A DNA stretch of 64,000 nt from the NCBI RefSeq assembly GCF_045037415.1, contig NZ_CP173438.1; one strand, given 5' to 3'. Of the stretch, positions 24,138-35,390 are shown one piece after another (the first letter of the stretch is position 1; each line of letters begins with the position of its first letter). The notes under the pieces were generated by a model. The model saw only the letters and a program-made list of their open reading frames with translations, was not told the DNA's origin and ran no database searches. This DNA comes from Escherichia coli (GTDB lineage: Bacteria > Pseudomonadota > Gammaproteobacteria > Enterobacterales > Enterobacteriaceae). The position numbers and the translations under genes were made by a program.

Positions 24138-25295
24138 ATGGAGCGCAACGTCACGCTCGATTTTGTTCGCGGCGTCGCCATTCTGGGGATCCTGCTATTA
24201 AACATCAGCGCCTTTGGGCTACCAAAGGCGGCTTATCTCAATCCCGCCTGGTACGGCGCTATTACGCCGCAGGATGCATGGACCTGGGCATTTCTCGATC
24301 TCATCGGCCAGGTGAAATTCCTCACGCTTTTTGCGCTGCTGTTTGGTGCGGGCCTGCAAATGTTGCTGCCCCGTGGCAGACGCTGGATCCAGTCGCGGTT
24401 AACGCTGTTAGTCTTGCTGGGCTTTATTCACGGTTTATTGTTCTGGGACGGCGATATTCTGCTGGCTTACGGACTGGTGGGCTTAATCTGCTGGCGGCTG
24501 GTGCGCGATGCGCCATCGGTAAAAAGCCTGTTTAATACAGGCGTCATGCTTTATCTGGTGGGGCTTGGCGTTTTGCTGTTATTGGGGCTGATTTCCGACA
24601 GCCAGACCAGCCGCGCCTGGACGCCGGATGCATCGGCTATTTTGTATGAAAAATACTGGAAGCTTCACGGTGGTGTTGAAGCGATCAATAATCGTGCCGA
24701 TGGTGTTGGCAACAGTTTACTGGCACTGGGCGCACAGTATGGCTGGCAACTGGCAGGGATGATGCTCATTGGTGCGGCGCTGATGCGCAGCGGCTGGCTG
24801 AAAGGGCAGTTCAGCTTACGTCACTATCGTCGTACTGGTTTTGTGCTGGTGGCGATTGGGGTGATCATTAACCTTCCTGCCATCGCCCTGCAATGGCAGC
24901 TGGACTGGGCGTATCGCTGGTGTGCCTTCTTACTTCAAATGCCGCGGGAACTGAGTGCGCCGTTTCAGGCGATTGGCTATGCGTCGCTGTTTTATGGCTT
25001 CTGGCCGCAATTAAGCCGCTTTAAGCTGGTGCTGGCAATCGCCTGTGTCGGACGGATGGCACTGACCAACTATCTATTGCAAACGCTGATTTGTACTACG
25101 CTTTTTTACCACCTCAGTTTGTTTATGCAGTTTGACCGTCTGGAGCTGCTGGCGTTTGTTATTCCGGTATGGCTGGCGAATATCTTCTTCTCTGTTATCT
25201 GGCTGCGTTACTTCCGCCAGGGGCCGGTGGAATGGCTCTGGCGTCAGTTAACTTTGCGTGCTGCCGGACCGACAATATCTAAAACATCAAGATAA
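24138..25295 (+). CDS. yeiB: DUF418-family inner membrane protein
   Basis: 385-aa polytopic membrane ORF immediately downstream of folE. Confidence 0.75.
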   Translation: MERNVTLDFVRGVAILGILLLNISAFGLPKAAYLNPAWYGAITPQDAWTWAFLDLIGQVKFLTLFALLFGAGLQMLLPRGRRWIQSRLTLLVLLGFIHGLLFWDGDILLAYGLVGLICWRLVRDAPSVKSLFNTGVMLYLVGLGVLLLLGLISDSQTSRAWTPDASAILYEKYWKLHGGVEAINNRADGVGNSLLALGAQYGWQLAGMMLIGAALMRSGWLKGQFSLRHYRRTGFVLVAIGVIINLPAIALQWQLDWAYRWCAFLLQMPRELSAPFQAIGYASLFYGFWPQLSRFKLVLAIACVGRMALTNYLLQTLICTTLFYHLSLFMQFDRLELLAFVIPVWLANIFFSVIWLRYFRQGPVEWLWRQLTLRAAGPTISKTSR

Positions 25296-25325
25296 CGATC
25301 TGGATCACATTCGTTAACAAAACGG

Positions 25326-25341
25326 CTGTAACCGTTTCCAT
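25326..25341. promoter_or_regulatory. GalR/GalS operator in galS promoter
   Basis: ctgtaaccgtttccat resembles gal operator consensus GTGTAAACGATTCCAC. Confidence 0.6.
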
Positions 25342-25344
25342 TGC

Positions 25345-25360
25345 TGTGACTCGATTCACG
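25345..25360. promoter_or_regulatory. CRP binding site in galS promoter
   Basis: TGTGA-ctcgat-TCACG matches TGTGA-N6-TCACA. Confidence 0.65.
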
Positions 25361-25436
25361 AAGTCCTGTATTCAGTGCTGACAAAATAGCCGCCAGCAAG
25401 CAGTCATTTACTGCAATCTCATAACAGGTAGTGAAT

Positions 25437-26477
25437 ATGATCACCATTCGTGATGTAGCGCGTCAGGCTGGCGTCTCTGTGGCAACGGTTTCCCGGGTGC
25501 TCAATAACAGCACGCTGGTCAGTGCCGACACGCGTGAAGCAGTAATGAAAGCTGTGAGTGAGCTGGATTATCGGCCAAACGCCAATGCCCAGGCGCTGGC
25601 AACTCAGGTTAGCGACACCATTGGCGTGGTGGTGATGGACGTTTCTGATGCTTTTTTCGGCGCGCTGGTAAAAGCGGTGGATCTGGTCGCCCAGCAGCAT
25701 CAGAAATACGTGCTAATCGGCAATAGCTATCATGAAGCGGAAAAAGAGCGTCACGCCATTGAGGTGTTAATTCGCCAGCGTTGTAATGCGTTGATTGTTC
25801 ACTCAAAAGCATTGAGTGACGATGAACTGGCACAATTTATGGATAACATTCCTGGTATGGTGTTAATCAACCGCGTTGTGCCGGGGTACGCCCATCGTTG
25901 CGTTTGCCTGGATAATCTCAGCGGTGCCCGAATGGCGACGCGCATGTTGCTGAATAACGGTCATCAACGTATTGGTTATCTTTCTTCCAGCCACGGCATT
26001 GAAGATGACGCCATGCGTAAAGCAGGCTGGATGAGTGCGTTGAAAGAGCAGGATATTATTCCGCCGGAAAGCTGGATTGGCACTGGTACGCCGGACATGC
26101 CGGGCGGTGAGGCGGCGATGGTTGAACTGCTGGGGCGCAATCTACAACTAACCGCTGTATTTGCTTATAACGACAATATGGCTGCTGGCGCACTGACAGC
26201 ATTAAAAGATAATGGCATTGCGATTCCGCTACATCTCTCAATCATCGGTTTCGATGATATTCCCATCGCCCGTTACACCGACCCGCAATTAACGACCGTG
26301 CGTTATCCCATTGCTTCAATGGCTAAATTAGCTACCGAACTGGCCTTGCAGGGGGCAGCAGACAATATTGATCCTCGTGCCAGCCACTGTTTTATGCCGA
26401 CGTTAGTGCGTCGCCATTCTGTCGCAACACGCCAGAATGCGGCGGCGATCACTAACTCAACAAATCAGGCGATGTAA
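25437..26477 (+). CDS. galS: LacI/GalR-family repressor (mgl-gal isorepressor)
   Basis: Track ORF trimmed to [23 protein letters not shown] (346 aa); LacI-type HTH. Confidence 0.85.
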
Positions 26478-26487
26478 CCGCTTTCAA
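26472..26487. promoter_or_regulatory. GalR/GalS operator of the mgl operon
   Basis: atgtaaccgctttcaa resembles gal operator consensus; overlaps the galS stop codon (26475-26477). Confidence 0.6.
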
Positions 26488-26489
26488 TC

Positions 26490-26505
26490 TGTGAGTGATT
26501 TCACA
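26490..26505. promoter_or_regulatory. CRP binding site of the mgl promoter
   Basis: TGTGA-gtgatt-TCACA, perfect match to CRP consensus half-sites. Confidence 0.7.
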
Positions 26506-26756
26506 GTATCTTAACAATGTGATGGCTATGATTGCACCGTTTTAACGTTGTAACCCATATGTAACAGTGAATAATCACTTTCACCGAGGTAATAGCGTCA
26601 TAACAACAATTAAAGCCGTTTTCTGGAGCGTTACCGGGCATGGAAGAACGAATTTTAAAAAGTGAGCTTCGGCGTTCAGTAACACTTCATTAACTCTACT
26701 GCCCCGCCGAGCATTTATCTCAAGCACTACCCTGCATAAGAAAAACCGGAGATACC

Positions 26757-27755
26757 ATGAATAAGAAGGTGTTAACCCTGTCTGCTGTGATGGCCAGCAT
26801 GTTATTCGGTGCCGCTGCACACGCTGCTGATACTCGCATTGGTGTAACAATCTATAAGTACGACGATAACTTTATGTCTGTAGTGCGCAAGGCTATTGAG
26901 CAAGATGCGAAAGCCGCGCCAGATGTTCAGCTGCTGATGAATGATTCTCAGAATGACCAGTCCAAGCAGAACGATCAGATCGACGTATTGCTGGCGAAAG
27001 GGGTGAAGGCACTGGCAATCAACCTGGTTGACCCGGCAGCTGCGGGTACGGTGATTGAGAAAGCGCGTGGGCAAAACGTGCCGGTGGTTTTCTTCAACAA
27101 AGAACCGTCTCGTAAGGCGCTGGATAGCTACGACAAAGCCTACTACGTTGGCACTGACTCCAAAGAGTCCGGCATTATTCAGGGCGATTTGATTGCTAAA
27201 CACTGGGCGGCGAATCAGGGTTGGGATCTGAACAAAGACGGTCAGATTCAATTCGTACTGCTGAAAGGTGAGCCGGGGCATCCGGATGCAGAAGCACGTA
27301 CCACTTACGTGATTAAAGAATTGAACGACAAAGGCATTAAAACTGAACAGTTACAGTTAGATACCGCTATGTGGGATACCGCTCAGGCGAAAGATAAGAT
27401 GGACGCCTGGCTGTCTGGCCCGAACGCCAACAAAATCGAGGTGGTTATCGCCAACAACGACGCGATGGCAATGGGCGCGGTAGAAGCACTGAAAGCACAC
27501 AACAAGTCCAGCATTCCGGTGTTTGGCGTCGATGCGCTGCCAGAAGCGCTGGCGCTGGTGAAATCCGGTGCACTGGCGGGCACCGTACTGAACGATGCTA
27601 ACAACCAGGCGAAAGCGACCTTTGATCTGGCGAAAAACCTGGCCGATGGCAAAGGTGCGGCTGATGGCACCAACTGGAAAATCGACAACAAAGTGGTCCG
27701 CGTACCTTATGTTGGCGTAGATAAAGACAACCTGGCTGAATTCAGCAAGAAATAA
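26757..27755 (+). CDS. mglB: Periplasmic galactose/glucose-binding protein
   Basis: 332 aa with signal peptide ([23 protein letters not shown]). Confidence 0.9.
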
Positions 27756-33164: not shown

Positions 33165-33180
33165 TGTGAAAGGATTCACA
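33165..33180. promoter_or_regulatory. CRP binding site upstream of preT
   Basis: TGTGA-aaggat-TCACA perfect consensus half-sites ~95 bp upstream of preT start. Confidence 0.6.
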
Positions 33181-35261: not shown

Positions 35262-35390
35262 GGCGTTGCCTCATAATCATGTAATGGGATAACAGTTTAC
35301 GAACCCGCTATGGCTTTATATGTGATCTGAATCTCATTAATTATGCAACGCGTGAAACTTACATCAAAAATGCGCGACGCATCGCAAATT

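Follow-up and report, generated by a model that had tools for sequence, protein, structure and literature searches.

In the analysed DNA (a stretch of 64,000 nucleotides, called the window here), positions 26472-26505 make up the upstream half of the promoter of mglBAC in E. coli; this assignment, together with the explanation of the site as a whole, is given a probability of about 0.93. The control region consists of an operator for the galactose isorepressor GalS and its paralogue GalR, mglO, followed directly by a CRP site. It is real and strongly conserved, and it has already been mapped and annotated; nothing is added here to knowledge of the gal regulon. This part of the window matches E. 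coli chromosomes at 100% identity, under the annotation yeiB-galS-mglB, and 5425 of 5426 complete genomes contain it. The order of genes in the RefSeq annotation is cirA, yeiG, folE, yeiB, galS, mglBAC. Features of the region are collected in the table.

Table. Features of the galS-mglB region, in window coordinates.
Feature	Position	Strand	Centre and distance from start	Basis or remark
galS promoter (external) operator, CTGTAACCGTTTCCAT	25326-25341		25333.5, -61.5	PWM 21.4 bits, ChIP-chip, RegulonDB
galS promoter CRP site, TGTGActcgatTCACg	25345-25360		25352.5, -42.5	RegulonDB, Reg-Seq footprint
galS CDS (galactose isorepressor)	25437-26477	+		RefSeq annotation, identical E. coli sequence
galS internal operator (third gal-regulon operator)	about 25479-25494		about +91.5	PWM 15.4 bits (rank 3), ChIP-chip, RegulonDB
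mglO, GalS/GalR site, ATGTAACCGCTTTCAA	26472-26487		26479.5, -59.5 from mglB transcription start	sequence, PWM, ChIP-chip, RegulonDB, conservation
galS stop TAA, inside mglO	26475-26477	+		annotated CDS end 26477
mgl CRP core TGTGA-N6-TCACA, TGTGAgtgattTCACA	26490-26505 (22-mer 26487-26508)		26497.5, -41.5
mglB -10 hexamer TATGAT	26527-26532	+		sequence; 5/6 columns invariant, the sixth nearly so (35 taxa)
mglB 5' leader, about 218 nt	26539-26756	+		start inferred from annotated site positions
mglB CDS	26757-27755	+		first gene of the regulated mglBAC operon

Operator and CRP site at the mglB promoter

The operator-like sequence that the sequence-only reading had placed across the galS stop codon was found on reading the letters, with the TAA inside it. 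It is a hyphenated dyad of 16 bp with a central CG. Ten of the 12 specified positions of GTGNAANCGNTTNCAC, the consensus for GalR/GalS operators (PMC5110547), are matched, and the mismatches lie only at the outermost positions, 1 and 16. Positions 3, 5, 9 and 15 are genetically essential (PMC5110547); G3, A5, G9 and A15 are all intact in mglO. A position weight matrix for GalR was built from 16 ChIP-chip sites of Qian et al. 2016 (PMC5110547), with the three galS/mgl sites left out. Scores on this matrix were not poor: among about 128,000 window positions the galS promoter operator ranked first (21.4 bits), mglO second (16.6 bits) and the galS internal operator third (15.4 bits). The training sites themselves span 14.5-21.6 bits, a range that includes mglO, and 0.145 matches of at least 16.5 bits are expected in 64 kb of random first-order sequence. 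When TGTAACCGNTTNCA was searched with up to one mismatch allowed, it was found in the window only at the mgl and galS promoters, exactly in both cases.

Occupancy and mutant data from earlier work lead to the same site. The GalR ChIP-chip study lists TTGAAAGCGGTTACA as bound, with a score of 9.5 (PMC5110547), and this sequence is the reverse complement of the mgl operator. The signal is modest in comparison with the scores of 78-115 at galE and galP (PMC5110547), which fits GalS, not GalR, as the main repressor of mgl. Mutations in the operator and in the CRP site raise mgl expression in chemostats (PMC2763269, PMC7863352). A G-to-T change described as '3 bp from the end of mglD' renders mgl semi-constitutive (PMC2763269), and the chemostat mglO mutation, recurrent under glucose limitation, maps to window position 26480, the central G at operator position 9. 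The CRP-site mutation, located 17 bp from the operator mutation (Kinnersley et al. 2021, PMC7863352), maps to 26497. The base identities of three reported mutations agree with this mapping.

Operator and CRP core are separated by the two bases 'tc' (26488-89), as had been proposed, and the core follows as TGTGA-gtgatt-TCACA. The description of this CRP site as perfect holds for both pentamers (10/10 of the core) but not for the flanks, which are non-consensus. The 64 kb hold two perfect cores, where 0.08 would be expected. On a CRP matrix made from 15 sites of the classic compilation and used as supporting evidence only, the mgl site scored 17.1 bits and ranked fourth among 64,000 positions; the tandem sites of cdd, a positive control for the matrix, were recovered. 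A CRP activator footprint was recovered at both mglBp and galSp in the Reg-Seq preprint, and neither promoter is transcribed in vitro unless regulators are present (PMC4073488).

RegulonDB places GalR/GalS at -59.5 and CRP at -41.5 of mglBp (tabulated in the supplement of the 2025 Reg-Seq preprint), and the annotated positions of the mgl and galS operators fit the geometry of the window exactly. The mglB start back-calculated from them is 26539, 7 bp past the -10 hexamer. A consensus promoter scan detected no -35/-10 promoter at mglBp and likewise missed galSp, as expected for CRP-dependent promoters without a -35 element. With a CRP site near -41.5, a -10 element and no usable -35, mglBp has the layout of a class II CRP-dependent promoter. 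CRP at -41.5 is class II by the usual definition. The Reg-Seq preprint terms this position 'class I'.

Two further observations concern the promoter sequence. The hexamer TTAACA at 26511-26516 falls between the -35 and -10 regions of mglBp (-28 to -23); 5 of its 6 columns do not vary among the 35 taxa, and its flanks are variable. Across 111 bp of the control region the window differs from K-12 at a single base outside both sites, 26524 (-15 of mglBp), which is G here and A in K-12; in the majority of E. coli genomes, one base is different from the window across a 91-bp stretch holding 26524.

Conservation of the region and the galS stop codon

A genome scan with MglB yielded 80 Enterobacteriaceae loci, of which 34, from about 25 genera, were aligned with the window to give 35 taxa. 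In mglO 14 of the 16 columns are invariant in this set, and the two variable ones, positions 10 and 13, are both N in the consensus. The mgl CRP site also has 14 invariant columns out of 16, with variation in the spacer only. The spacing of 18 bp between mglO and the CRP site never changes, there being no indels between the sites, and the 18 bp directly 5' of mglO contain no invariant column at all. Within E. coli, K-12 and the most divergent of the sampled strains have the same bases as the window at both mgl sites.

These data bear on the possibility that the motifs match by chance, or serve other regulators, for instance a different member of the LacI family, and have no part in the control of mgl. 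The Reg-Seq preprint recovered a GalR/GalS footprint at neither mglBp nor galSp, and it notes that the evidence for these operators is rated as weak in RegulonDB. Set against the missing footprint are ChIP occupancy, the operator mutants, the rank on the matrix and, in about 25 genera, an invariance limited to those bases that are contacted. The cited data refute this alternative, and its probability is barely perceptible. Control of mgl by GalS and GalR, and autoregulation of GalS, both proposed in the sequence-only reading, agree with the published positions, the GalR ChIP-chip data and the operator and CRP-site mutants.

The galS stop codon lies inside the operator only in Escherichia, that is in 3 of the 35 taxa (E. 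coli, E. albertii and one further Escherichia species). In the remaining 32 the stop ends 0-11 nt upstream of the operator, with its first base 14 to 2 nt upstream. GalS outside Escherichia ends in ...ITN or one residue further, with one exception in which the stop stands directly before the operator. Escherichia has the sense codon TCA where its relatives have TAA, TGA, TTA or other codons, and its GalS carries six extra C-terminal residues (STNQAM; 26454-26477) that are without counterpart in the other 32 taxa; translation ends at the TAA supplied by the operator, within ATGTAA. The ancestral stop has been lost in Escherichia, and reading continues to a TAA that is present in the operator by chance. 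Judged from these sequences, the overlap is an incidental, recent, lineage-specific by-product in Escherichia and stands outside the conserved design; what is conserved in the alignment is how closely the end of galS is packed against the control region of mgl.

Selection for the overlap itself, for example for a coupling of galS translation termination to operator function, is very improbable. The overlap does recur in E. coli, in E. albertii, in another Escherichia species and in the sampled E. coli strains. Yet the operator sequence is the same in the 32 taxa whose stop ends upstream of it, Escherichia merely carries TCA at the old stop, which adds STNQAM, and there is no evident mechanism by which an operator acting on DNA and a stop codon acting on mRNA would be coupled.

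The packing of galS against mglO also permits a second autoregulatory loop to be considered, by analogy with lac. In the lac case LacI bound at O3 roadblocks transcription of lacI, giving a truncated, stop-less mRNA and SsrA tagging (PMC3711431). Here, a repressor bound at mglO would in addition halt the polymerase finishing galS, with a stop-less mRNA and tmRNA-tagged, degraded GalS as the outcome. Several features are in keeping with such a loop. A simple scan of 25200-26800 found no intrinsic terminator on the + strand from the galS stop to mglB, so galS transcripts must cross the operator. In 35 of 35 taxa the galS stop starts between 14 nt upstream of the operator and operator position 4, and a polymerase halted there would leave a stop at or inside the operator edge untranscribed. 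The lacI gene has the same layout, its TGA lying within O3 and 15 bp ahead of TGTGA in the lac CRP site, and for LacI both the roadblock and the SsrA tagging are well documented (PMC3711431). Against this, the literature search found no paper tying galS to roadblocking. The lac O3 effect needs O1-O3 looping by tetrameric LacI, and dimeric LacI gave a faint product only (PMC3711431). Moreover, mglO is a site of middle strength, and an active repressor already represses the galS promoter, so any extra effect may be small. Roadblocking at mglO is therefore considered unlikely. If it did occur, it would constitute a post-initiation loop parallel to that of LacI at O3, and with the repressor off, galS transcription would read through into the mglB leader.

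The galS promoter, the mglB leader and other sites in the window

A similar pair of operator and CRP site, which had been pointed out in the promoter of galS, is present at 25326-25360. RegulonDB lists GalR/GalS at -61.5 and CRP at -42.5 of galSp, with a downstream operator at +91.5/+92.5 (Reg-Seq preprint supplement). The galS start derived from the site centres is 25395, in agreement with 'mRNA start -42' given for galS in PMC2763269. The sequence ATGGAAACGGTTACA, bound by GalR in ChIP-chip with a score of 10.9 (PMC5110547), is the galS promoter operator. The three bases 'tgc' separate operator and CRP site, and the CRP core has 9 of 10 consensus bases; on the CRP matrix it reached only 9.1 bits (rank 23). 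In the alignment, 11 of the 16 operator columns are invariant and the halves of the CRP core are kept. The internal operator, absent from the sequence-only reading, sits within codons of the helix-turn-helix DNA-binding domain, and its sequence, GTGGCAACGGTTTCC, is among the GalR-bound ChIP-chip sites (PMC5110547).

Just upstream of the galS operator, a block at 25286-25322 (about -109 to -73) that overlaps the stop codon of yeiB equals that operator in conservation (mean identity 0.93, 17 of 37 columns invariant). It contains an invariant TCACA (25305-09) within a weak CRP-like 22-mer (centre -93.5, 7.5 bits), and an imperfect palindrome, TCmAGAT-AACG-ATCTGGA. A palindrome maintained by selection is poorly supported, the variation in the arms being mostly one-sided. 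The 2025 Reg-Seq preprint reports an activator signal at about -95 in galSp. The block probably corresponds to this activator site, and candidates for the activator include a second CRP dimer.

The mglB 5' UTR has been given as about 250 bp (PMC3119520), and a Spot 42/Hfq site lies in the leader near the start codon (PMC5207318). Conserved islands were seen in the leader at 26559-81 (ATGTAACrGTGAwTAATCACTTT), at about 26624-50 (CTGGAGCGTTACCG..ACGGAAGA), at 26669-84 (TTCGGCGTTCAGTAAC) and in the ribosome-binding region. A permissive Rfam scan of 25000-27000 gave no matches. RNAalifold predicted a long-range pairing between 26621-26646 and the region of the ribosome-binding site and AUG, in which the paired bases are almost invariant and show little covariation. 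No structure is claimed for the leader, and the predicted one is unproven because its pairs barely vary. The promoter scan returned one promoter-like match in the leader (26548-26575), and sigma-28-like and Cra-like matches noted there by eye only were dropped. In chemostats, mutations in rho sweep only when accompanied by the mglO mutation (PMC7863352). A long untranslated leader and the lack of an intrinsic terminator after galS make Rho-dependent termination conceivable, and it could occur in the mglB leader.

Other matches were observed elsewhere in the window. The only other perfect TGTGA-N6-TCACA, at 33165-33180, is the top match to the CRP matrix (18.3 bits); it is located between preT and yeiS, and on the minus strand the start codon of preT follows about 100 bp downstream of it. 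Two further CRP-matrix matches, 35318-35339 and 35368-35389, are 50 bp apart and precede the start of cdd, on the minus strand, by 67 and 117 bp; they fit the tandem arrangement of CRP sites already known for the cdd promoter. A GalR-matrix match of 12.9 bits, TTGTTATCGTTTGCA at 20148-20162, is the 'F13' site of chromosome conformation capture work, MG1655 2246944-59 (Qian et al. 2016, PMC5110547).

Proposed control of mgl and related systems

The annotation of K-12 mglBp (GalR/GalS at -59.5, CRP at -41.5) is reportedly named with the work of Hogg 1991 and of Weickert and Adhya 1993. The K-12 promoter (RegulonDB/EcoCyc) is the same locus as the one described here; operator and CRP site are base-for-base identical and the positions match. 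The closest relatives are galETKM P1 (OE at -60.5, CRP at -41.5) and the galS promoter, in which, as in mgl, the CRP site is flanked directly upstream by a 16-bp GalR/GalS dyad and the same repressors and the same inducer operate. The positions -60.5 and -41.5 are those of RegulonDB galEp1 (Reg-Seq preprint supplement). The distance between operator and CRP centres is 19 bp in galE and galS but 18 bp in mgl. In the gal operon there are, in addition, OI at +53.5, a second promoter (P2) and looping that depends on HU (PMC5110547). The mgl operon depends mainly on GalS.

CRP activates from -41.5, the repressor binds at -59.5 and operator mutation leads to derepression, as seen here or in the papers cited. 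In the proposed scheme, cAMP-CRP would bind its site centred 41.5 bp upstream of the start at about 26539 and bring about class II activation. A GalS dimer, or more weakly a dimer of its paralogue GalR, would occupy the dyad formed by ATGTAACC and GCTTTCAA, abutting the CRP site. Without galactose, the bound repressor would block CRP-dependent open-complex formation, and D-galactose would release it. GalS does prevent open-complex formation according to PMC7863352, which summarises the primary work. The galS gene is driven by a like module, which together with its internal operator at +91.5 results in autoregulation.

The arrangement of the two mgl sites suggests how repression may be exerted. 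By comparison with class II promoters in general and with galP1, the RNA polymerase alpha C-terminal domain would dock upstream of the class II CRP dimer, at the operator. The operator, at about -67 to -52, would cover this dock and touches the 22-mer of the CRP site; a bound repressor would thus prevent a productive complex of CRP and polymerase. Since the dock is covered, repression of mgl is probably anti-activation, as at galP1, with the physical mechanism inferred by analogy.

The arrangement resembles that of lacI, O3 and the lac CRP site: the stop codon of a gene for a LacI-family repressor lies inside that repressor's own operator, and the operator abuts the CRP site of a downstream sugar operon. 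In lac, CRP is of class I (-61.5) and O3 has an auxiliary role that depends on looping to O1. In mgl, by contrast, the main operator is the upstream one, both GalS and GalR are dimeric, and a roadblock of galS is a hypothesis.

The value of the mgl site is that of a positive control, in which a composite regulatory site was rightly recognised from raw sequence. The check makes small additions to this, namely that the overlap with the stop codon is a recent accident of Escherichia, that the 18-bp spacing is fixed across the family, and that the layout is like that of lacI, O3 and CRP.
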